The notes under the pieces: model-generated | Seen by the model: only the letters and a program-made list of their open reading frames with translations | What the model was told of the DNA's origin: nothing | Databases searched by the model: none | Part shown: positions 8,483 through 21,429 of the stretch, piece by piece | Layout: each line of letters begins with the position of its first letter | How positions within the stretch are numbered: the stretch's first letter is position 1 | IMG/VR virus record: IMGVR_UViG_3300028364_000013 | Reading direction: 5' to 3' (one strand) | Length of the DNA stretch: 64,000 bases | DNA from: a virus | Lineage: Duplodnaviria; Caudoviricetes | Program-made: the position numbers and the translations under genes

Positions 8483-9223
8483 CTAATTTTTAATTATTTT
8501 ATATTGTCTCTTATGTATTTCTACTTTATCAAGCACAAATTTAGTACTAATTGCTTGAACAAACAAATTAAAAGCATCATCTTTATCAATAACAATAATT
8601 TCAACTGGTTTAACATTACCATCAACCCATTGAATCTTTTTCCATTGCTCATTAGAATAAGTCCCATCAGTTTTGGGCATCTCACCTTTACACACTTTCA
8701 AAGTGAAGTCACTCTTAATTTCAATAAATCTATCTCCAAAGTCAAAATCTGGAATGTATTGTCCATGAGGTGTTTTAAATTTTTTTCTATTTGGTTTTGG
8801 CAAATCAACTCCGTCATTAATTAACCTCTGAAGATATGCTACCTCATAAGAACCAAGAACCTTTCCAGCTTTTGTATTAAAAGTTCTTGACTTACCTATA
8901 ACTGGAAGTCTATCTTCTTTGTCCCAAGCTTCAATTCCACTTTTAGAAATCTGTTCTTTCGACTTTTTAGAATGTTTCCTTCCAGTAAATCCTTTAGTTG
9001 GACCATATACTTCTCTGTTTTTTTTGCAAAGGTCACTCTTGCTAATTTTTGGAACTTTCCATTTATCAAGCCAATATGTTATTGAAAAATCACTTCTATC
9101 AAACAGATTTCCTATATATTTTGCCCCCCTATGCTCTTTTGAATAAAGTTGTATGATTTCTTTTTTTTCTTCTGTAGAAGGCTCTCCCTTTCTTTTATAG
9201 TAAACTCTCTTTCTAACTTGCAG
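8483..9223 (-). CDS. HEG-like protein: HTH + NUMOD3-like + PD-(D/E)XK; no ATG/GTG/TTG start upstream of 8803
   Basis: Frame is open far upstream of the called ORF: PSTEEKKEIIQLY...FTGRKHSKKSKEQIS...GSYEVAYL...YIPDFDFGDRFIEIKS. Confidence 0.65.
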   Translation of the reverse strand: MQVRKRVYYKRKGEPSTEEKKEIIQLYSKEHRGAKYIGNLFDRSDFSITYWLDKWKVPKISKSDLCKKNREVYGPTKGFTGRKHSKKSKEQISKSGIEAWDKEDRLPVIGKSRTFNTKAGKVLGSYEVAYLQRLINDGVDLPKPNRKKFKTPHGQYIPDFDFGDRFIEIKSDFTLKVCKGEMPKTDGTYSNEQWKKIQWVDGNVKPVEIIVIDKDDAFNLFVQAISTKFVLDKVEIHKRQYKIIKN

Positions 9224-9295
9224 CCACTTTGGGCAACCACAAGAAAGATAGATGGAGTTATTTATGAAGGGAACATTAATAAAGGAGAAGATTAA
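9200..9295 (+). pseudogene. C-terminal remnant of an HNH-type endonuclease
   Basis: Manual translation VNSLSNLQPLWATTRKIDGVIYEGNINKGED*, resembling the NLQPLW...N..K end of phage HNH proteins. Confidence 0.5.
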
Positions 9296-9669
9296 TCTAA
9301 AATTATAATAGAATCTATTTGTTTTCTGGTCATATTGACTCTTGAAACTTGAATTAAAACCTCATCTCCAAGCCTATAGCTATCTCCATTATTAAAATCG
9401 TTTATACAATAGTTTTCTTCATCAACAAATAGATTATTGGATTTTAGCCAATCTTCTGAAACCATTGTATCACATCCATTTTCTATTATTTCTATAAAAA
9501 CACCAAACGAATTTACACTGGAAATAATTCCTTTAAATTTCTCTCCAATTTTACTCTTCAGAAACTCGCACTGCTTGTACTTAATGGATTCTCTCTGTGC
9601 TTTAGCAGCTTTTTGTTCTTGTTCACTTAGATGTTCGCACATTTGTGATAATTGTGATTTATTATACAT
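9292..9669 (-). CDS. rnr: RNase R C-terminal part (end of RNB domain + S1 domain)
   Basis: CEHLSEQEQKAAKAQRESIKYKQCEFLKSKIGEKFKGIISSVNSFGVFIE; ATG overlaps the integrase stop (TAATG). Confidence 0.85.
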   Translation of the reverse strand: MYNKSQLSQMCEHLSEQEQKAAKAQRESIKYKQCEFLKSKIGEKFKGIISSVNSFGVFIEIIENGCDTMVSEDWLKSNNLFVDEENYCINDFNNGDSYRLGDEVLIQVSRVNMTRKQIDSIIILD

Positions 9670-10472
9670 TATATAGGTAAATTTACTTTATTTAACATTT
9701 TATTTGAGACATGGGTATATATCTCAGTGGTTTTAGATGATGAGTGACCCGCTATCTTCTGAATAATTCTAAGGTCTGTGCCGCTTTCCAATAGATTTGT
9801 GAAAGAAGAATGGCGTAGTGTGTGAATTGAAGAGTTGTTGTCAATATACTTCTTATATATTTTCTGACAACTACCAACTGAATACTGGTCATAATTTTGA
9901 CCATTAAACAAATAAGTTTTTGGCCTATATTCTTTCCAATAATACCTCAACAACTGCAGCACATAGTTCGATAATGGTACAACCCTATCTTTTCTTCCCT
10001 TAGCATTTTTAATATAAATCAACATTCTGATGGAGTCAATATCTTCTATTTTTAAATTAACAACTTCTGATACACGAAGACCAACTGAATACGTTAAAGT
10101 CAATATTGCTTTATGTTTTAAATTTTCAATCTTTGATAACTTATCTTTAATCAATTCTCCATCTATAACTTTTGGTAACTTCTTTTCTTTCTTTGGCCTC
10201 TTAAAAGATACTTTATCATACTTTTTATTGAGCCCAAACTTATAAAGAAATCTAATTGCGTTAATAACTTGATTTTGTTTTGATATAGAAGTGAAATTAT
10301 AATTATTAAGATATAACTGAAAATCTTTTGAATTGAGGTGAATTATTCTTTTATCACCGCACCAAGTAATAAATTGCTTGATGTAATGGGTATAAATGTC
10401 CTTGGTTCTTTCAGAGTAGTTTAAATATATAAACTTTTGTTCACAAATCTTTACAATTTTTTGATTTAACAT
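9669..10472 (-). CDS. Tyrosine recombinase (XerD/IntI-like, SAM-like N-terminus)
   Basis: Intact catalytic set: GLRVSE (R), AKGRKDR (K), HTLRH (HxxR), AGH, TEIYTH (Y). Confidence 0.92.
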   Translation of the reverse strand: MLNQKIVKICEQKFIYLNYSERTKDIYTHYIKQFITWCGDKRIIHLNSKDFQLYLNNYNFTSISKQNQVINAIRFLYKFGLNKKYDKVSFKRPKKEKKLPKVIDGELIKDKLSKIENLKHKAILTLTYSVGLRVSEVVNLKIEDIDSIRMLIYIKNAKGRKDRVVPLSNYVLQLLRYYWKEYRPKTYLFNGQNYDQYSVGSCQKIYKKYIDNNSSIHTLRHSSFTNLLESGTDLRIIQKIAGHSSSKTTEIYTHVSNKMLNKVNLPI

Positions 10473-10489
10473 CTTATATCAATTTAATA

Positions 10490-10531
10490 ATCAATGATTT
10501 ATAAAAAGGTGTTTATATATAGTCGTTATGT
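10490..10531 (+). other. attI-like half site next to the integrase 5' end
   Basis: gtttatatatagtcGTTATGT: R' core with an attC-like arm but no complementary partner arm. Confidence 0.55.
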
Positions 10532-10693
10532 GGCATTATACCACCACATCTTTTTTGTGATTTTGTGTTTTTTAACTAATTCCTTCGTATGTTCTTTAAT
10601 ATCTTCGTAATCTTTTGAAACTTCATTCAATTTTTCACAAAAAGATACGTAACAATCGTATTCATCATCAATTCTACTTATACTACTTCCCAT
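10526..10693 (-). CDS. Cassette 1 ORF, 55 aa (absent from ORF track)
   Basis: MGSSISRIDDEYDCYVSF...KMWWYNAT*; stop lies in the GTTA core. Confidence 0.55.
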   Translation of the reverse strand: MGSSISRIDDEYDCYVSFCEKLNEVSKDYEDIKEHTKELVKKHKITKKMWWYNAT

Positions 10694-10704
10694 AATTTAA
10701 CGCC

Positions 10705-10825
10705 ACATAACAACGTATATAAAACATTGCTTTAGTGGTCTTTTATTTAGTTTATTAATAATTCAAAATTTGTTGTTTATCTGTTAAGTTTCGGTTGGCA
10801 ACGTTTCATATACAAAACGTTGTGG
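10705..10825 (+). repeat. attC-like site 1
   Basis: ACATAAC..gtatataaaacattgc / gcaacgtttcatatac..GTTGTGG. Confidence 0.8.
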
Positions 10826-10830
10826 TGCAT

Positions 10831-11139
10831 TTAGAAAGAAAGTGCTTCACCTGCAACAACACCAGGGTCGCCATATTTACCTTCATCTTCTTCATCAAAG
10901 TTTTGTATAATTTGAAGAGCCTTTTTATACTTCATAAGGCGTTCAGTTAATGTCTGTTTTGCAAGTTCAATCCATTCACCATTTGGCGAGTGCTTGCAAC
11001 ATAAAATTCCGTTAATCACTTTTTCTTGATAATACATAGTTAAAAAACGCACCACAACAATGTATAACAGCAATAGCGGGTTGTAGTGCTTAATTTTAAC
11101 ACCATTGCTTCTAATTAATATTCTGTTTAATTCAATCAT
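10831..11139 (-). CDS. Cassette 2 hypothetical protein
   Basis: Bounded by GTTGTGGTGC / GCACCACAAC. Confidence 0.6.
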   Translation of the reverse strand: MIELNRILIRSNGVKIKHYNPLLLLYIVVVRFLTMYYQEKVINGILCCKHSPNGEWIELAKQTLTERLMKYKKALQIIQNFDEEDEGKYGDPGVVAGEALSF

Positions 11140-11183
11140 TTGTGCTTTCTAATCCGCTACTGCGGTTATACTCAGCGTTATAA
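11052..11183 (+). repeat. attC-like site 2
   Basis: CCACAAC..gtataacagcaatagcgg / ccgctactgcggttatac..GTTATAA. Confidence 0.8.
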
Positions 11184-11387
11184 GTCATTTAGAACTTCAA
11201 TTCTATGTGGTTCATAATCAATAGGAGTTATATAATACAAACAAGGTATGTTTTTACTCAAACCTCTCATTCCAATCATTACGTCAGAATCATTTTTATA
11301 ATCTACTTTGTCAGATAAAAAACGACTTATAACATCAGCTATATGTAACACCTTTCCATCTTTATCAAATATTTCTAATTTATCCAT
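11178..11387 (-). CDS. Cassette 3 hypothetical protein
   Basis: Bounded by GTTATAAGTC / GACTTATAAC; starts in the attC3 loop, stops in the core. Confidence 0.6.
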   Translation of the reverse strand: MDKLEIFDKDGKVLHIADVISRFLSDKVDYKNDSDVMIGMRGLSKNIPCLYYITPIDYEPHRIEVLNDL

Positions 11388-11457
11388 TGTTTCAGTATTT
11401 TAAGTTAGTATAGTAATCTATCAAGGTCGGCACTACACATAGCCCAAGCGGTTAGGT
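11327..11457 (+). repeat. attC-like site 3
   Basis: TTATAAC..gctatatgta / tacacatagc..GTTAGGT. Confidence 0.75.
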
Positions 11458-12057
11458 TTAATATTCACTAAGTTTAATGCTACCTTCAATCTCATTTCCC
11501 CAAGCATCCCATCCTTGTCTAATATTTCTGGAGAACAATTCTAATTTATTTCCTTTAGATACTTTTTCAATAAGTTCATAAAAGAAGTCTGGTTTTTTTG
11601 AATGGCAAGGGTAGCCGTTTACATATTGTCTTTTTTCTTCAAACCAAGTTCCGTTTATTTTTTCATTTACCAATTCATTAACCTTGCCTTTGGTTGCAAA
11701 AATTAAGTATTCAGTAGACACTTTAAAAGTTCCACCCATTCCGCTACCTATTGGTTTTTTACACCATACAAGGGTTGTAGAGTATTTAAAACCCCAAGCC
11801 TTTACAACTTCTTCCGCTTTCATTAAATACTTATTTGTAACCCACAAATACAAATGACAATTATCAGCAGTCAAGTTTTTAATAGGCAGGTTTACTATGT
11901 CTTCAAATTTCATTGTGTTATAAGGCAAGTCTGCAGACTTATCGCTTTTTGGATTAAACACTTGTACCCCATTTTCTTTTTTGTAACCACCGCTTAATGG
12001 TCTCCCTGCTTTTTGCTCCCAAGCTGGGTCTGCATATATTATATTGTATTTATTCAT
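11458..12057 (-). CDS. Cassette 4: MT-A70 family methyltransferase
   Basis: IIYADPAW, CHLYLWVT, WGFKY, HSKKP, LELFSR, GWDAWGNE. Confidence 0.88.
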   Translation of the reverse strand: MNKYNIIYADPAWEQKAGRPLSGGYKKENGVQVFNPKSDKSADLPYNTMKFEDIVNLPIKNLTADNCHLYLWVTNKYLMKAEEVVKAWGFKYSTTLVWCKKPIGSGMGGTFKVSTEYLIFATKGKVNELVNEKINGTWFEEKRQYVNGYPCHSKKPDFFYELIEKVSKGNKLELFSRNIRQGWDAWGNEIEGSIKLSEY

Positions 12058-12087
12058 ATTTATTCTTTAAAATCCGTTCATACTAAA

Positions 12088-12141
12088 ACCTAACAATGTG
12101 TAAAACGGCATTAAAACGACCGTTTACACTAGGCGTTGTAA
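12088..12141 (+). repeat. attC-like site 4 (54 bp)
   Basis: ACCTAAC..gtgtaaaacgg / ccgtttacac..GTTGTAA, one extrahelical A. Confidence 0.8.
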
Positions 12142-12156
12142 GTAATTGGTTTTTAC

Positions 12157-12381
12157 CTACTGCGTATCTGCATAAGCACATTCATTACATTTTCTTTCCA
12201 CATATACAGCAGTGTTTTCGCAACTATCACAAACCAACTCCGTACAACACCGTGTATAAATAATAGCTTGCTTATTTCTGTCTTTTAAGATTACGTAAGC
12301 TTCATCGCTTATTTTGTTATCTTGGTGCAACCTATCAAGTGTAAATCCTGTTTGGATAAGTTGGTTATTTGTTTCGTTCAT
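12157..12381 (-). CDS. Cassette 5 hypothetical protein (Cys-rich C-terminus)
   Basis: Starts inside the attC5 loop. Confidence 0.55.
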   Translation of the reverse strand: MNETNNQLIQTGFTLDRLHQDNKISDEAYVILKDRNKQAIIYTRCCTELVCDSCENTAVYVERKCNECAYADTQ

Positions 12382-12437
12382 TTTTATAAAATTTAGTTGT
12401 TATTAATCGCTACTATTCATACACAAATCAGTTGTAG
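12242..12437 (+). repeat. attC-like site 5
   Basis: GTACAAC..gtgtataaataatagc / gctactattcatacac..GTTGTAG. Confidence 0.75.
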
Positions 12438-12443
12438 TGAATG

Positions 12444-12635
12444 CTACAATCCTACCTTTGATTTAAGTTCAGATATTGACATCCAGCTTTTAATTGATTT
12501 TGGTTGAACCCAATCGCTTTCCATGTCTGCTTTGAACATTCCATCTTTGTAATAGGCAAATTCAAGTACTCCACTAATATGTTCAACCAACACCCTTGTC
12601 ATATTTTCGGGTAATTCTAAATCTGTATTTTTCAT
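12444..12635 (-). CDS. Cassette 6 hypothetical protein
   Basis: Bounded by GTTGTAGTGAATGC / GCACTCACTACAAC (13/14 complementary). Confidence 0.6.
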   Translation of the reverse strand: MKNTDLELPENMTRVLVEHISGVLEFAYYKDGMFKADMESDWVQPKSIKSWMSISELKSKVGL

Positions 12636-12670
12636 TTCAATTATACATTTAAGTTAATAATCCGCACTCA

Positions 12671-12735
12671 CTACAACACTTTGTATAGTGCATAGCTCGT
12701 GCCTCACTACGACACCATACAAGATGCCGTTGTAG
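12671..12735 (+). repeat. attC-like site 6 (65 bp)
   Basis: CTACAAC..ttgtatagtg / caccatacaa..GTTGTAG. Confidence 0.78.
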
Positions 12736-12747
12736 GTAATAAATTTA

Positions 12748-12930
12748 CTACTCTTGTGGTTCAAGAATGTCATAAGCATCTCTTATACATCCTTTTAATG
12801 TTGTGGCAACTGTTTGCATCCTAAAAGCACCGTTGTAATCTTCGGCTTTTATCTTATCATCAATTAAGCCTTGTAAATGTTGCCACTTGGTTTGCCATTC
12901 TTCAATCTGTTGTTTCAATTTATCTTCCAT
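12748..12930 (-). CDS. Cassette 7 hypothetical protein
   Basis: Bounded by GTTGTAGGT / ACCTACAAC. Confidence 0.6.
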   Translation of the reverse strand: MEDKLKQQIEEWQTKWQHLQGLIDDKIKAEDYNGAFRMQTVATTLKGCIRDAYDILEPQE

Positions 12931-12972
12931 TATATTTTTAAGTTTAGTGTTTCAATTCTGCAGGATTACTAC

Positions 12973-13028
12973 CTACAACAAAGGCTATAAAGCCATACAA
13001 GTACAGGCTCATAGCCTAGACATTATAT
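12973..13028 (+). repeat. attC-like site 7 (core variant ATT)
   Basis: CTACAAC..ggctataaagcc / ggctcatagcc..ATTATAT. Confidence 0.7.
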
Positions 13029-13038
13029 GCAATAAAAA

Positions 13039-13314
13039 TTACTTACGTCTTGGGTCTTCATCACACCATAGTTTATAACAATTAACTTTTCGCTTTATTA
13101 ACCGTGCTTTGTCTTGGATTTCTTCAAGGTTGGTAGCTGTTAATATAGCATCTAATGACACACTTCCACCACTACTGTCATCTAAATATCTTCCAAGCCA
13201 AACACTACCTTCGTCCGCTAATTCGTGCATTTTTGCATAATCAGGGAAACATTCTTTTACTTCTTTAATTAATTTTTGTGAGTACATAATCGTAATTTTA
13301 AAAGCATATAACAA
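13039..13314 (-). CDS. Cassette 8 hypothetical protein
   Basis: Bounded by (A)TTATATGC / GCATATAAC; true start may be internal (MYSQKLIK). Confidence 0.6.
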   Translation of the reverse strand: MLYAFKITIMYSQKLIKEVKECFPDYAKMHELADEGSVWLGRYLDDSSGGSVSLDAILTATNLEEIQDKARLIKRKVNCYKLWCDEDPRRK

Positions 13315-13434
13315 CGTGTATATTTTATTGCTACATACCGCCTATCTAAAGGCTTGTTAATATTTATTCAGTTCTGTTCTTATTTAAAGTTTATTGATAC
13401 CTATACGCAACAAAGCATACACAAACCGTTACCA
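13306..13434 (+). repeat. attC-like site 8
   Basis: ATATAAC..gtgtatattttattgc / gcaacaaagcatacac..GTTACCA. Confidence 0.75.
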
Positions 13435-13438
13435 AACA

Positions 13439-13729
13439 TTAAATAACTTGGTACATCATTCCTGCAACTTGTGGCCCGTGTGTGTCATACGCTTTATCAT
13501 AAGCATCATTACTATCTTCTGCCTCTATTTCAAACGTCCATCCGTCTTTCCCTTCTGATTCAAACCAGAATAAATAACGTTTGGTAACACTATCTATAGG
13601 TAATGTCTGCCCTAGCTTTAGTGCTTGTAAGCGAAATTCAAATTCGTTTAAGAACTCTTGGTCTGTTGGTGTTCCTCCGATACCCTCCATTCCTTTTACT
13701 ATGTCAATTACTTTTTCTGATATATTCAT
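13439..13729 (-). CDS. Cassette 9 hypothetical protein
   Basis: Bounded by GTTACCAAAC / GTTTGGTAAC; N-terminal half encoded in the attC9 loop. Confidence 0.6.
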   Translation of the reverse strand: MNISEKVIDIVKGMEGIGGTPTDQEFLNEFEFRLQALKLGQTLPIDSVTKRYLFWFESEGKDGWTFEIEAEDSNDAYDKAYDTHGPQVAGMMYQVI

Positions 13730-13786
13730 GATTAATTTTTAGTTATTTAAGTCGGGCAAAAAATACCCATAGATTTAACGTTAGCA
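13582..13786 (+). repeat. attC-like site 9 (205 bp)
   Basis: TGGTAAC..tctataggta / tacccataga..GTTAGCA. Confidence 0.7.
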
Positions 13787-13787
13787 T

Positions 13788-14036
13788 TCATAGTATTTGC
13801 CTTTCATCTATTGGTTTTTGGCATTCAATACAGTAAGGCGTACCATTTTCATCATTATCTCTACCTTTAGCCTGTGAGCATCGGCAAAATAACGAAATGC
13901 TAACATCAGGTATGGAGCAGTTTTTTACTCGCTCCTGGTCACATTCATTCCACACCTTCAACAGTGCTTGTTGTACGCTTGTACTATTGGGATAAGCTGT
14001 TTCAGCCTGTATCTCTTTTATTCTTTCAGTTGTCAT
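13788..14036 (-). CDS. Cassette 10 hypothetical protein (Zn-finger-like C-terminus)
   Basis: Bounded by GTTAGCATT / AATGCTAAC; CRC...CIEC. Confidence 0.6.
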   Translation of the reverse strand: MTTERIKEIQAETAYPNSTSVQQALLKVWNECDQERVKNCSIPDVSISLFCRCSQAKGRDNDENGTPYCIECQKPIDERQIL

Positions 14037-14096
14037 ACAATAAAGTTTAGTGTTTCAAATCCGTAAAAAATCCGCTCCATACCCCTAGCGTTATAT
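13898..14096 (+). repeat. attC-like site 10
   Basis: TGCTAAC..ggtatggagc / gctccatacc..GTTATAT. Confidence 0.8.
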
Positions 14097-14161
14097 GCAA
14101 TGCTACGTTATCACTTCGTATTAAGTTTCATCATAACATTCCCTTTGTTTTTCCACCGAAC

Positions 14162-14725
14162 TTATAATTCTAAATCCATATTAAATGGTTTAAAATTATT
14201 ATCTTCAATCATTTTCCTAACTCTTGGATGAAATTTATAAAATATTGAATTTGGTAAATCAATATCCCAATCCATCACGTCTATTAATTTGTTAATAATT
14301 CTACCTTGGAATATTTCATCTACATTTTCTATAAATAATTCATCAAAAGGAAAATGGACATTTCCAAATGTTGAATACATTTCAACCCAATCTAATATTT
14401 CTTTTTCTAATCTACTGTAATCATATCTAACTAAATCTTTTACTAATAGTTCGTTTTCACTATGTGCTATTATCTGACCACCATAGTCTAATAATTCTTT
14501 TCTATAAAGTTTCTTATGATTATCAGATATTTCTTTATACATTTTCTCAGGCATCTCACTACCATTTTCTATGTTTTTATTAACAAATGTTAAAAACTCT
14601 TTATCATCCCATAAATCATCTGAACTTGGTTCATAATTCATATCCTTTAAATTGCCATCTTGGTCAATATATGCTTCATTCAAATATTCACGTATAGTCG
14701 TTGCTATAAATTTTCTTAATTCCAT
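14162..14725 (-). CDS. Cassette 11 hypothetical protein with own TATTTATA motif
   Basis: MELRKFIATTIREYLNE N-terminus; cassette bounded by GTTATATGC / GCATATAAC. Confidence 0.7.
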   Translation of the reverse strand: MELRKFIATTIREYLNEAYIDQDGNLKDMNYEPSSDDLWDDKEFLTFVNKNIENGSEMPEKMYKEISDNHKKLYRKELLDYGGQIIAHSENELLVKDLVRYDYSRLEKEILDWVEMYSTFGNVHFPFDELFIENVDEIFQGRIINKLIDVMDWDIDLPNSIFYKFHPRVRKMIEDNNFKPFNMDLEL

Positions 14726-14841
14726 AATAATAAATAGTTTAATCTATATATAAATAATCACTTTTTAATATTCCACCCACAAAAATAAAACAAAAAGGCT
14801 TCGTTCTTCGTATCAGCATTTGTGGTTAAAATCCGCACAGC

Positions 14842-14859
14842 ATATAACAAGTGTTAGTT
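14842..14859 (+). repeat. Collapsed attC-like site 11
   Basis: ATATAAC-aagt-GTTAGTT: both cores present, stem and loop missing. Confidence 0.6.
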
Positions 14860-15111
14860 GCAATGCTGTGGGTTTTTGCAACCTTCGTAGTGTTCCATAT
14901 CGCTTCCGTAACCGTTATACCACAAAACATATTCGCAATTTCTAACTTTTACTATTTGTAAGTCTGCCTTCCATTTAGGGTTGCTTATGTACATTTCTCT
15001 GTTATCTTTTTCTTGCTCAATATTTTCTTTGGTTTCATCTCCACAAGAAGAAAGCACAGCAACTAACACAAAATATAGCGTATAACTTAATTTCGTTCTT
15101 AAATTTTTCAT
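14854..15111 (-). CDS. Cassette 12 putative lipoprotein
   Basis: Hydrophobic signal ending VAVLSS-C; bounded by GTTAGTTGC / GCAACTAAC. Confidence 0.6.
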   Translation of the reverse strand: MKNLRTKLSYTLYFVLVAVLSSCGDETKENIEQEKDNREMYISNPKWKADLQIVKVRNCEYVLWYNGYGSDMEHYEGCKNPQHCN

Positions 15112-15192
15112 CTGTTCTGTTTTTAAAGTTTATTAATTATTAAAAGTTTTGTGCTGTTTTTGTCGTTACACACCATATTCAACACGTTATCG
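15061..15192 (+). repeat. attC-like site 12
   Basis: AACTAAC..aatatagcgtataac / gttacacaccatatt..GTTATCG. Confidence 0.7.
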
Positions 15193-15204
15193 GCAAATGC
15201 TACA

Positions 15205-15378
15205 TTACTTCTTCGTATCAATATTTACGTTAGAAGTTTTTATTTTTTGCCCACGCTCTTTGATTAACTTACGTATTTCAGTTTCACATAAGTTTTTACG
15301 ACTTCTACCATCTTCTTTAGCAATAGCATCAAGAATATCAGTTTCATCTCTATCTAAATGTATTTCTATTCTTACCAT
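15205..15378 (-). CDS. Cassette 13 RHH/Arc-like protein, 57 aa (absent from ORF track)
   Basis: MVRIEIHLDRDETDILDAIAKEDGRSRKNLCETEIRKLIKE; TAATG coupling to the upstream ORF. Confidence 0.65.
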   Translation of the reverse strand: MVRIEIHLDRDETDILDAIAKEDGRSRKNLCETEIRKLIKERGQKIKTSNVNIDTKK

Positions 15379-15695
15379 TAATCAATCATTTTAATTGATG
15401 AGTATGCAATGTTCCAAACCTCTCCATTTTCTCTTTTACATTTAACTTTCTTTGGATTTAGTTTTAAAACTTCCCAAATTTCACCTTTAAATTTATCACT
15501 AGCAACGGAAACTATGTCTCCTACTTTCAAATCGGTTTTTGATTTTTCTTTCCGTTCCAATTTAATTTGATATTCTTGTTCACGAATAAGTCTATTTGCA
15601 TCAGCAATTACTTTGTTCAATTCATCTAATGATAATCCAGTCAAGTCTATTTTACTTTCAGTATTTATCGTTGCCAGTTCTTGTAGTAAATTCAT
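15378..15695 (-). CDS. Cassette 13 hypothetical protein (coiled-coil + SH3/KOW-like)
   Basis: DLKVGDIVSV...IWEVLKLNPKKVKC; own TAAGTTTG promoter at 15731-15738. Confidence 0.6.
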   Translation of the reverse strand: MNLLQELATINTESKIDLTGLSLDELNKVIADANRLIREQEYQIKLERKEKSKTDLKVGDIVSVASDKFKGEIWEVLKLNPKKVKCKRENGEVWNIAYSSIKMID

Positions 15696-15851
15696 CTTAT
15701 TTTGTTTTAGTGTTATAGTTAATCATACGACAAACTTACGATAAAGTTTCGTATAAACCAAATCTTTTTCAATTATTTTTCTTCCGACCCTAAAAAATAA
15801 AAACTTATTTAGTGCTTCGTATTGAAATTAAGATAGATAATCCGCATCAGC

Positions 15852-15916
15852 CGATAACATTTTGTATATTTCAGTTTGCGAAAAGCAAACCGATAACATA
15901 CAATTTGCCGTTACCC
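15852..15916 (+). repeat. attC-like site 13 (65 bp)
   Basis: CGATAAC..ttgtatatttcagtttgc / gcaaaccgataacatacaa..GTTACCC. Confidence 0.78.
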
Positions 15917-15922
15917 TTAATA

Positions 15923-16420
15923 CTAGACATCTGTTTTCATAAAAGACATCCAATGCGTATTTGAGCGTTTACCTGATTTGTGTCCAAATAATGGTTGATG
16001 GCCAATGGCATTTAATATTTGAGTAACTGTAATTTGGGTTTCGTTCCATTTGAATATTAAAGTCCCATAAGGCTCTAAAACTCGCATACATTCATTAAAT
16101 CCAGTTTTTATATCTAATTCCCAAGTAGGTAATAAAACACCATACTTTTTAGCCATCCAACTGTCTTTTCCTAACTTATTTAAGTGTGGTGGGTCAAATA
16201 CTACCATTTTGAAAGTATTGTCTTTAAATGGCATATCTCTAAAATCAACCTCAATATCAGGTTTAACCTCTATTGTTCTAATTCCAGTATTTACGCTACT
16301 ATCTTTTACTTCTACGGTTTCCGTTCTTATGTCAGCAAATAAAACATTAGGGTTTGTTTTGTCAAACCAGAACATTCTACTTCCGCAACAAGCATCTAAT
16401 ATTTTTTTATCTGTATTCAT
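15923..16420 (-). CDS. Cassette 14: class I SAM-dependent (putative DNA) methyltransferase
   Basis: ILDACCGSRMFWF, VVFDPPHL, GTLIFKW. Confidence 0.85.
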   Translation of the reverse strand: MNTDKKILDACCGSRMFWFDKTNPNVLFADIRTETVEVKDSSVNTGIRTIEVKPDIEVDFRDMPFKDNTFKMVVFDPPHLNKLGKDSWMAKKYGVLLPTWELDIKTGFNECMRVLEPYGTLIFKWNETQITVTQILNAIGHQPLFGHKSGKRSNTHWMSFMKTDV

Positions 16421-16454
16421 TATTCAAATTTCGTTTTTAATCAACCCGTACTAA

Positions 16455-16521
16455 GGGTAACAATTTGTATAATGCATAATTTGTAAAAACAAATTCCGAC
16501 ACCATACAATAGCCGTTAGCG
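16455..16521 (+). repeat. attC-like site 14 (67 bp)
   Basis: GGGTAAC..ttgtataatg / caccatacaa..GTTAGCG. Confidence 0.78.
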
Positions 16522-16528
16522 GTAATGG

Positions 16529-16759
16529 TCAGACGTTGTATCTAACAGCAGATGCCATTGCTATCAACAATAGTATTCCTGTTATAATAGCACCATCTGT
16601 TCCGAACATTTGTCCTATACAAAACATTACACCACCTGCCAATATTGTTGATACAAACATATACCATCCAGTTCCACTTTTAGGCTTTAATAAACCACTA
16701 CCGCTAACAAAGGGTTTATTAAATGGCTCAGTTTCGTTTTTCAAATTATCTTTTTCCAT
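16529..16759 (-). CDS. Cassette 15 two-TM membrane protein
   Basis: Bounded by GTTAGCGGTAATGG / CCACTACCGCTAAC (16695-16708); its attC lacks a right arm. Confidence 0.6.
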   Translation of the reverse strand: MEKDNLKNETEPFNKPFVSGSGLLKPKSGTGWYMFVSTILAGGVMFCIGQMFGTDGAIITGILLLIAMASAVRYNV

Positions 16760-16859
16760 ATTTTAAAGTTTTATGATTCTAATTAATTTTTGTGCGTAAA
16801 GTAACATTAAGTTAATTATCATAAAATATGATGAAAGTATATCTAAAAAAATAAATAAG

Positions 16860-18422
16860 CTATTGTCCGCCATTCATATAATACCACAATAATCTATGAC
16901 TCAAAATATCGCTGTATCTTCTTATTGGTGATGTAAAGTGACTATAGTGCTTGAATCCGAGTCCATAGTGACCAATTATTTGAGTTGAATAAACTGCTTT
17001 CGACATTGAGCGAATAGCTAACGTTGAAATCATTGCTTCCTCACCACTTCCAGACGCTTTCTTCAACATCTCGTTGAGAGATGCTTTGGTAGCTTCCATG
17101 CTTCCTGAAGTATTAAAGTGATAACCGAACTGAGATACGAATAAACTTAACTCATGCAGTTTCTCTTCACTTGGAAGGTCGTGTGTTCTATATACGAATG
17201 GCTTGGTAAGTCCGTGTGCATAAGTTGCAACATACTTGTTAGCCAATAACATGTACTCTTCAATAAGTTGATGAGCATCTGCAGATTCATGAAAGAAAAC
17301 ATCTATTGGAACATTGTCCTCATCAAGAACAAAGTTTGGCTCTCTTCTGTTGAAGGTGACCGCTCCATCTTTAAATCTTTTCTTTCTAACTTTCTTTGCA
17401 ATGCCATTCAATATTTTCACACAATCGAATACTCCCATCCCTGGTGGAACGCTTTCTATTCTGTCGGCAGTTCCTTCTATAATCTCTTGCGCTTCTTCAT
17501 ACGTCAATCTACAATCAGAGTTGATTACAGTCTTCTTGAAATTGTGCTTAACAACTTCTCCATCTGGAGACATCTGAAAGATAACCGAGAATGTCAGTTT
17601 TTCTTCATTTGGTCGTAAGCTACAGATTCCATTAGAAAGCCTCTCTGGGAGCATTGGAATACATCTATCAACAAGATAAACTGAAGTCGCTCTTCTAAAT
17701 GCTTCCTTATCCAATTCACTTCCTGGTCTAACATAATGTGTTACATCAGCAATGTGAACTCCAATCTCGTAATTCCCATTATCCAATTTCTTGAATGATA
17801 TTGCATCATCAAAATCTTTTGCACTGTCTGGGTCAATGGTGATTGTCAAATCTCCACGCATATCTCTACGCTTAAGAATCTCCTTTTCAGAAATCTCAAC
17901 TGGAATGTCTTCAGCTTCTTTCATAACTGCATCAGAGAAATCATAATCAATATTATGCTTAAACATAATGCTGTTCATTTCAGTCTCGTGAGTTTCAGCT
18001 GCGCCAATCACTTTTGTGACAATACCTTTTGGGCTTTTGTCCTTCTTGTGCCATCGGTGCAATTTAACAACCACAACCTCTCCATCCTTAGCGCCATTTA
18101 GGTGCTCCATTGGAACATAGAAATCTACTGGCATCTTACCTCCAGAAGTTCTAACAAAAGCAAATCCCTTTTCTTCATTGATGTCAATTACACCAGAGAA
18201 TTCAGTTTTGCTTCTATCTTCAACTCTTTCTACTATACCTTGTTCTCCAGTACCTTTTCCGCTTTCGTCTTTAACAATTGACACTGTGACCTTATCTCCA
18301 TGAAGAGCTTGGCCTGTATTTTTTTTGTGAATGAACAAATCATCATTGCCTTCTAATATTAAGTAAGCATGACCGTTTCTTATAAACTCTATTGTTCCTT
18401 CAGTTTGTTTTAATTTTTTCAT
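16860..18422 (-). CDS. rnr: RNase R N-terminal part (cold-shock domains + RNB catalytic domain)
   Basis: ALHGDKV, TIDPDSAKDFDDAIS (catalytic Asp), HIADV, IEEYMLLAN, HFTSPIRRY; stops at YYMNGGQ* before the S1 domain. Confidence 0.92.
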   Translation of the reverse strand: MKKLKQTEGTIEFIRNGHAYLILEGNDDLFIHKKNTGQALHGDKVTVSIVKDESGKGTGEQGIVERVEDRSKTEFSGVIDINEEKGFAFVRTSGGKMPVDFYVPMEHLNGAKDGEVVVVKLHRWHKKDKSPKGIVTKVIGAAETHETEMNSIMFKHNIDYDFSDAVMKEAEDIPVEISEKEILKRRDMRGDLTITIDPDSAKDFDDAISFKKLDNGNYEIGVHIADVTHYVRPGSELDKEAFRRATSVYLVDRCIPMLPERLSNGICSLRPNEEKLTFSVIFQMSPDGEVVKHNFKKTVINSDCRLTYEEAQEIIEGTADRIESVPPGMGVFDCVKILNGIAKKVRKKRFKDGAVTFNRREPNFVLDEDNVPIDVFFHESADAHQLIEEYMLLANKYVATYAHGLTKPFVYRTHDLPSEEKLHELSLFVSQFGYHFNTSGSMEATKASLNEMLKKASGSGEEAMISTLAIRSMSKAVYSTQIIGHYGLGFKHYSHFTSPIRRYSDILSHRLLWYYMNGGQ

Positions 18423-21383: not shown

Positions 21384-21429
21384 AAGTCCAGGATTTTATA
21401 AGTTATACGCAAAAATAAGAAATTTGTTC

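Follow-up and report, generated by a model that had tools for sequence, protein, structure and literature searches.

In the 64-kb window (the whole stretch of phage DNA analyzed, 64,000 nucleotides), the minus-strand gene at 9669–10472 encodes a tyrosine recombinase that lacks the I2 insertion of integron integrases (IntI) and stands at the head of an array of cassettes with attC-like sites. We consider it probable that this enzyme is the recombinase of an integron-like platform made up of integrase, attI-like site, and cassette array, that it belongs to an I2-less lineage related to IntI, and that it acts by folded-strand exchange.

The gene was assigned as an insertion-less, IntI-related integrase from its open reading frame (ORF), Pfam and NCBIfam matches, a family alignment, and an AlphaFold2 model. 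The 267-aa product carries PF13495 (3.7e-12) and PF00589 (1.7e-32), the domain pair of simple tyrosine recombinases, and its catalytic residues R133, K158/K161, H217, R220, H243, and Y252 are fully or almost fully conserved among 27 aligned family members. The protein reaches none of the curated NCBIfam models. It scores 152.6 bits against the IntI model TIGR02249 (cut-off 265), in a match of two stretches, and 100.2 bits against NF011946, integron integrase IntI (cut-off 435); the archaeal XerA, XerD, and XerC models give 169.5, 145.7, and 140.9 bits against cut-offs of 220, 329.6, and 335, respectively. Among solved structures the best sequence match is the archaeal XerA of Pyrococcus abyssi (4a8e, 1.2e-34). 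A Foldseek search with the AlphaFold2 model (pLDDT 89.1) ranks VchIntIA (2a3v) first, with an E value of 5.6e-14 and a TM score of 0.75, and XerA below it. Since these scores fall beneath the IntI cut-offs, intI-based screens would likely miss enzymes of this kind; the intI_Cterm model of IntegronFinder describes a segment that the phage protein lacks, so that a match to it is unlikely.

In the MAFFT alignment and the two-piece HMMER matches, the site that holds I2 in true IntI corresponds to codons P184 to N190 of the phage gene (9903–9923, minus strand), where nothing is inserted; residues 174–192 of the recombinase read LLRYYWKEYRPKTYLFNGQ. The MAFFT-aligned stretch at residues 150–226 spans 76 aa in the phage enzyme versus 123 aa in IntI1. 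Its equivalent is likewise 123 aa long in five true IntI proteins of Bacteroidota-type genomes, 76–84 aa in insertion-less relatives, and 88–90 aa in XerC/D. The first of two gaps relative to IntI, approximately 32 aa after P184, corresponds to the ALPxALxRKYP helix (I2) of IntI, and the second, approximately 10 aa after F189, to the IntI hairpin that follows I2. With HMMER, residues 18–172 and 210–261 of the query align to residues 17–174 and 260–311 of the VchIntIA chain, leaving 37 residues between the two pieces in the phage protein versus 85 in VchIntIA, while Pyrococcus XerA (4a8e) aligns with the recombinase end to end. By tblastn, residues 5–255 extend over 301 codons of IntI1 at 25.7% identity. 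TIGR02249 positions 181–253 are skipped in three complete relatives as well. We also searched the AlphaFold2 model for an extra helix and found none; helix 169–182 and a loop are all that lie between strand 163–166 and helix 199–209. The sequence-only reading of the window had proposed that the recombinase lacks the IntI-specific I2 insertion, and both the sequence comparisons and the predicted fold confirm this: the alignments to IntI1 and VchIntIA that it had suggested contain no I2-equivalent segment, and I2 and the hairpin after it are absent from the phage recombinase. A 320-aa relative from Chlorobiaceae (L169, G007:C2:973-1785) matches the IntI model over positions 3–179 and 233–314; with approximately 53 model positions skipped (180–232), this protein may be a form that has part of the insertion.

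An attI-like region (10473–10524), delimited by a junction that is conserved in related loci, separates the first cassette core from the start codon of the integrase. Read on the minus strand, the last cassette ends in ...ATAAC and is followed by GAC-TATATATAAAC. The array itself, delimited from the unit list and the junction sequences, occupies 10525–16759 and comprises approximately 15 cassettes. Its units (10525–16708, plus strand) run from GTT plus 6–7 unit-specific bases to the exact reverse complement of these bases plus AAC, and each is followed by a hairpin site of 4–191 nt; the array accounts for 8 of the 10 exact units detected across the 64-kb window. Because the boundaries of shared units fall there, we define a cassette as GTTy...y'AAC together with the hairpin after it (plus strand), with the crossover just before GTT. 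The integrase is encoded on the strand opposite to the GTT-to-AAC reading and beside the first core, which is the canonical integron geometry. The exception is that phage cassette genes are antisense, reading toward the integrase and often starting inside the site; in the window, all cassette ORFs are on the minus strand with this orientation.

A compact attC-like site at 12666–12740 (plus strand), delimited by its junction sequence and arm alignments, illustrates the organization: ...CTACAAC, ACTT, a TGTATA stem, a loop, a TACAA stem, GAT-GCC, and GTTGTAGG. Three extra bases lie beside its GTT core, and the stem has no conserved single-base bulge. Junction sequences identify further compact sites at 15847–15921 and 16450–16526. 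At 14837–14864, only 4 nt (AAC-AAGT-GTT) separate two cassette cores, representing either a minimal or a collapsed site. Contigs of four lake metagenomes were compared with 9000–17500; the source assembly breaks at several sites in this interval, and alternative neighbors begin near 12426, 13588, 14883, and 16523. We rejected the joints between these contigs as evidence of excision, because the sides of the joints are only 20–27 letters long and all come from contigs. One piece of an attC-like site (13617–13729) has approximately 80-fold depth in the probable source metagenome, compared with 16–20-fold beside it, and carries nine differences; this type of site is therefore repeated elsewhere in the sample.

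Relatives of the recombinase are numerous in metagenomes, where they form more than 100 clusters at approximately 80% identity on contigs of up to 364 kb, and 107 are found on viral contigs. We fetched 80 viral loci and scanned them with the strict detector of exact units used on the window. Upstream of the integrase this detector recovered 241 units in 457 kb, versus 14 in 664 kb downstream; homologs of the integrase are thus associated with such arrays, and the lack of association that the sequence-only reading had named as refuting its proposal does not hold. In many loci the contig ends a few hundred bases upstream of the integrase, probably because assembly broke where the sequence is variable. 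Nearly all related phage loci share a junction, y'ATAAC followed by TAT(T/A)ATATATA, 45–60 nt upstream of the integrase start. The three complete relatives (288–362 kb) contain no PF00589 gene besides the integrase.

Comparison of all upstream regions against each other by blastn revealed whole units that are common to different contexts. On the coding strand, the homology of these shared blocks starts at TAAC|G and ends at TAAC|, so that the crossover can be located only to within the TAAC(G) that they have in common. A 960-nt cassette, 99.9% identical in two phages, lies beside the attI-like site in locus L023 and 2.4 kb from the integrase in locus L012, and its order relative to a block of 1828 nt is reversed between the two loci. 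Furthermore, cassettes that are 97–100% identical occur in phages whose integrases are only 61–67% identical. The cassettes are thus discrete mobile units that have been exchanged exactly at the GTT/AAC core. The cores themselves are diverse, with 118 distinct 10-mers in which positions 6–10 are nearly free, and each matches the other end of its own cassette exactly, although an exact match is built into the detection of units. Judged from these sequences, pairing rather than sequence appears to be what is conserved in the cores. Among cultured phages, relatives at approximately 37% identity are present in Polaribacter phage Freya and Cellulophaga phage Ingeline. Two Freya isolates, Freya_10 (L240) and Freya_6 (L241), are 99.9% identical over 5.9 kb, and their sole difference is the segment directly upstream of the integrase, 3.2 kb in Freya_10 and 0.44 kb in Freya_6, where the strict detector finds one unit. 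The Freya isolates are a possible laboratory model of cassette turnover.

For an analysis of site architecture, the 5′ arm of each site was aligned with the reverse complement of its 3′ arm, and arrays beside true IntI served as the control. The procedure for scoring bulges and wobble pairs is our own and was validated only by its recovery of the known bulges and gene orientation in true IntI arrays. Counted over sites that are not independent (arrays hold near-identical sites, and related phages have sites in common), an L'' bulge is present in 41 of 44 true IntI sites (mean, 1.8 per site; sites mostly bulged in 11 of 11 loci) versus 16 of the 104 sites of all insertion-less classes. These 104 divide into 26 cellular sites, 3 of them bulged (mean, 0.15 per site; 1 of 13 loci with mostly bulged sites), and 78 phage sites, 13 of them bulged (mean, 0.26 per site; 3 of 38 loci). 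Extrahelical bases are accommodated by the I2 part of IntI (PMC4792948); as both I2 and these bases are missing here, enzyme and site have changed together. One feature is common to all three site classes: the unpaired spacer is 3–4 nt longer on the crossover-side arm.

The stems of insertion-less sites carry mismatches that are strongly asymmetric between strands: the G·T form, which is A·C on the complementary strand, falls on the favored strand in 148 cases and on the opposite one in 24. This bias is found in phage sites (107 versus 14) and cellular sites (41 versus 10), with true IntI sites evenly divided (6 versus 6). As set by the crossover and the spacer asymmetry, the G·T-favored strand corresponds to the bottom strand of integrons. 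In phages it carries the cassette genes (55 of 60 sites), whereas in cells these genes are on the complementary strand (24 of 26 sites). Because the same strand is favored despite the opposite gene direction, an explanation at the level of RNA is excluded. The G·T/A·C asymmetry would have no meaning in duplex DNA and therefore argues for a folded single-strand substrate; a point against this reading is that G·T pairing is weaker in DNA than it is in RNA. The separate mechanism envisaged by the sequence-only reading thus holds in part: the sites lack extrahelical bases, but the geometry of integrons is kept.

Insertion-less enzymes are also encoded in cellular genomes. With an alignment of 12 family sequences as the query, 185,579 species genomes were scanned, which yielded 80 loci, mostly in Bacteroidota, at 38–56% identity; one more locus, at 80% identity, lies on a 2-kb contig of a metagenome-assembled genome. 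The cellular loci contain 107 units versus 27.6 in shuffled sequence, and 12 loci have at least three units versus 0.55 expected from shuffles, so the homologs are associated with arrays in cells too. Insertion-less integrases head canonical-looking arrays of 8 units in Flavobacterium difficile (L166), 10 units in a Chitinophagaceae genome (L101), and 4 units in Desulfitobacterium sp. Sab5 (L098). These three integrases are 371–385 aa long and are directly followed by sense-oriented cassettes. A Bacteroidales genome (L097) encodes a 266-aa integrase in the phage layout, and in all four proteins the match to the IntI model is split in two, the insertion being absent. An N-terminal extension of approximately 100 aa is present in most cellular enzymes, whose genes precede the array and share the orientation of its sense cassettes; the phage layout is confined to a short clade that comprises loci L090, L095, and L097 together with the phages. 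Each of the five cellular genomes checked (G004–G008, including the hosts of L166, L101, and L098) encodes separate XerD and XerC proteins, and genomes without an IntI match above the cut-off are among those in which insertion-less relatives head arrays. The PGAP annotation of a plasmid relative from Chryseobacterium sp. SNU WT5 (44% identical) is "site-specific tyrosine recombinase/integron integrase". On the L098 chromosome (locus 8969–14091), the hairpin sites are compact, with 62–65 nt between cores, and this organism belongs to Bacillota. To our knowledge, complete integrons have been reported as almost absent from that phylum.

Reference sequences of true IntI were taken from a family search across the phylum of Flavobacterium difficile (401 sampled genomes), since the use of IntI1 as a search seed gave IntI1-like proteins only (at least 75% identity), too uniform a sample. 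Full-length IntI above the TIGR02249 cut-off is encoded by 113 of these 401 genomes (L181–L210, L224–L239), many with canonical arrays. This count is far above the near-absence of complete integrons from Bacteroidetes that was given from complete genomes in 2022 with IntegronFinder 2.0 (PMC9024848). The model NF040815 was considered as a marker of the array-linked family and rejected: it matches in 375 of the 401 genomes, mostly to housekeeping Xer-like proteins of approximately 300 aa, and does not discriminate.

We built a careful maximum-likelihood tree of 74 proteins, with XerC/D as the root. IntI and all insertion-less enzymes form one group apart from XerC/D (support 100/100), within which true IntI is monophyletic (100/100) and all 49 insertion-less proteins make up the sister half (95/79). 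The short clade that holds the phages (100/100) lies outside IntI, and in no tree, careful or quick, does the phage clade fall inside IntI. The insertion-less enzymes score higher against IntI (92–124 bits) than against the XerC/D of their hosts (51–93 bits). A larger quick tree places four insertion-less proteins, two of them array-linked, beside IntI, and the branching inside the IntI-related group is therefore unsettled. As the outgroup is without I2, the most economical history is a single gain of I2 on the stem leading to IntI. The phage enzyme accordingly belongs to a lineage separate from IntI, as had been surmised from the window.

How the platform might operate can be outlined from these features. 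The enzyme most likely excises and inserts cassettes by one strand exchange at the GTT/AAC core, in a reaction that it would itself catalyze. It would act on each attC-like site as a folded "bottom" strand, the strand that encodes the cassette genes in the window's phage, and the single strand exchange would presumably be resolved by replication. The hairpins, being free of extrahelical bases, resemble plain duplex. Strand choice appears to be cued by the asymmetric unpaired spacer, 3–4 nt longer on the crossover-side arm, and by mismatches that would pair as G·T on the bottom strand and clash as A·C on the top strand. By parsimony, I2 would never have been present in this lineage. The analysis shows that the enzyme has no I2, that it is associated with arrays, that exchange occurs at the core, that bulges are lacking, and that pairing is strand-asymmetric; the last of these argues for the use of folded single-strand substrates without I2.

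It is unlikely, in our judgment, that the enzyme instead runs the array as a classical Xer-like recombinase on duplex sites, with two exchanges across a short overlap. Such an enzyme would be expected to be Xer-sized and without I2, as this one is, and no solved structure matches it better in sequence than XerA (4a8e); extrahelical bases are missing from the sites, only 4 nt separate the cores at 14837–14864, and IntI itself retains weak double-strand activity (PMC4792948). Sequence-specific duplex sites, however, would not have core arms that vary freely while each remains complementary to the other end of its own cassette (the exactness of the match comes from detection). Nor would duplex sites give meaning to the strand asymmetry of 148 versus 24 in G·T and A·C mismatches, and the crossover-side spacers differ among sites, so that a second, homology-dependent exchange would be blocked.

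We regard as quite unlikely the proposal that a true integron integrase lost I2 secondarily, so that the lineage would be degenerate and neither a sister group nor an ancestor of IntI. In the careful tree IntI is sister to a group of all 49 insertion-less proteins (95/79), and I2 is missing from the outgroup too, making one gain shorter, yet one quick tree does nest IntI among insertion-less proteins. VchIntIA is the nearest fold, the scores against IntI exceed those against the hosts' XerC/D, and the asymmetry of the site spacers is common to the true IntI arrays of the same phylum, all of which would suit a loss. Decay, on the other hand, fits poorly with a large, intact, and conserved family of more than 100 clusters at approximately 80% identity that retains all catalytic residues, and sites that have changed in step with the enzyme fit a working system. 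Finally, it seems highly improbable that the phage uses the integrase for its own lysogeny or for resolving genome multimers, while host IntI enzymes move the cassettes. Full-length IntI is widespread in the phylum of the likely hosts (113 of 401 sampled genomes), and IntI1 can recombine phage-derived attC sites, one of them from a Polaribacter phage (PMC9892861). The array, however, is always on the same side of the integrase, directly after the conserved junction 45–60 nt from its start; bulged bases, which are present in the IntI sites of that phylum, are missing from the phage sites; and insertion-less relatives head arrays in genomes without an IntI match above the cut-off.

The integron-like platform that we favor resembles IntI integrons (IntI1; VchIntIA, 2a3v) in having an integrase, an attI-like site, and an array, with a GTT start complementary to the cassette end, exchange at the GTT/AAC core, and hairpins with R and L stems and an unpaired central spacer. 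Unlike these integrons, it has an enzyme 47 residues shorter (no I2 or hairpin) that scores below the IntI cut-offs and lies outside the IntI clade, sites without extrahelical bases but with a strand bias in G·T/A·C mismatches, and antisense cassette genes. The insertion-less platforms of Bacteroidota and Bacillota (L166, L101, L098, and L097) share with it the enzyme group, core, spacer asymmetry, bulge-free sites, and wobble bias; they differ in mostly having the N-terminal extension of approximately 100 aa, an upstream integrase, and sense cassettes. XerC/XerD and archaeal XerA are similar in size, in the pair PF13495 and PF00589, and in catalytic residues, whereas the phage enzyme falls below every Xer cut-off, is set apart from the XerC/D of the same genomes by a long branch (100/100), and has no dif context. 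A precedent in mode of action is XerCD on the folded single-stranded attP of phage CTX (an IMEX), in which I2-less recombinases perform a one-strand exchange on a duplex-mimicking hairpin without extrahelical bases (PMC4792948, PMC7790495). CTX, however, uses host enzymes, and the whole phage enters dif without an array, whereas here the phage has its own enzyme and many cassettes. Lastly, the phage CALINs of Qi et al. (2023, PMC9892861), including one in a Polaribacter phage, likewise comprise attC-type sites and cassettes in phage genomes. They were reported as attC clusters "lacking an integrase", that is, without an integron integrase, whereas a dedicated integrase of another lineage heads the array in more than 80 phage contigs here.

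Integron surveys define the integron by the I2 domain. We found no description in the literature of insertion-less integron integrases that head arrays, whether in Bacteroidota, in giant phages, or elsewhere. Smyshlyaev et al. described an "integron-like" subgroup of recombinases in which the insertion is "not fully conserved" and did not link it to arrays (PMC8138268). According to Escudero et al., I2 is necessary for cassette capture, and both I2 and single-strand recombination are exclusive to IntI (PMC4792948, PMC7790495); this published requirement and exclusivity count against our preferred explanation. The same authors speculated on a Xer-like ancestor and a viral origin of integrons (PMC4792948, PMC7790495), and no evolutionary intermediates of integrons are known (PMC7790495, PMC4792948). 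We tentatively propose, giving it slightly less than an even chance, that the capture of hairpin cassettes needs no I2: a large sister lineage of IntI, spread over Bacteroidota, some Bacillota, and phages, would recombine bulge-free single-stranded hairpins, with the strand set by G·T/A·C mismatches and spacer asymmetry, and I2 and extrahelical bases would be a later refinement of the IntI branch.

If this proposal is true, the I2-less systems would be the "missing intermediates" of integron origin, with giant phages among their carriers, and the system of this giant lake phage would make that origin directly testable. Integron-type gene capture would extend to phyla and phages in which integrons count as rare, and some integrase-less attC clusters would be explained. 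Systems with and without I2 and bulges would also provide a natural pair for studying how the choice of strand and the exchange of single strands evolved. To the phage itself, the platform is a store of small accessory genes exchanged among distant relatives.

The platform is flanked in the window by two parts of an RNase R gene. A C-terminal piece with an S1 domain, identified from the ORF list and the sequence, lies at 9292–9669 (minus strand), and its ATG overlaps the integrase stop codon (TAATG); the N-terminal part, identified by tblastn against related loci, lies on the far side of the array at 16860–18422 (minus strand). RNase R is undivided in three related loci (L067, L068, and L040), where it lies 1–5 kb from the platform, and the split is therefore peculiar to the window's phage. 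It thus seems that RNase R was invaded by the platform, or by one end of an array, in this phage alone. As the flanks differ and RNase R is undivided in related phages, the platform is not fixed in one gene. Elsewhere in the window, a motif of approximately 30–40 nt, consisting of (T)GTTATACGCAA, an A-rich run, and AATGTT, recurs between genes at 21402, 23183, 34556, 35504, 38192, 60459, and 60719 and may be a phage promoter or regulatory site.
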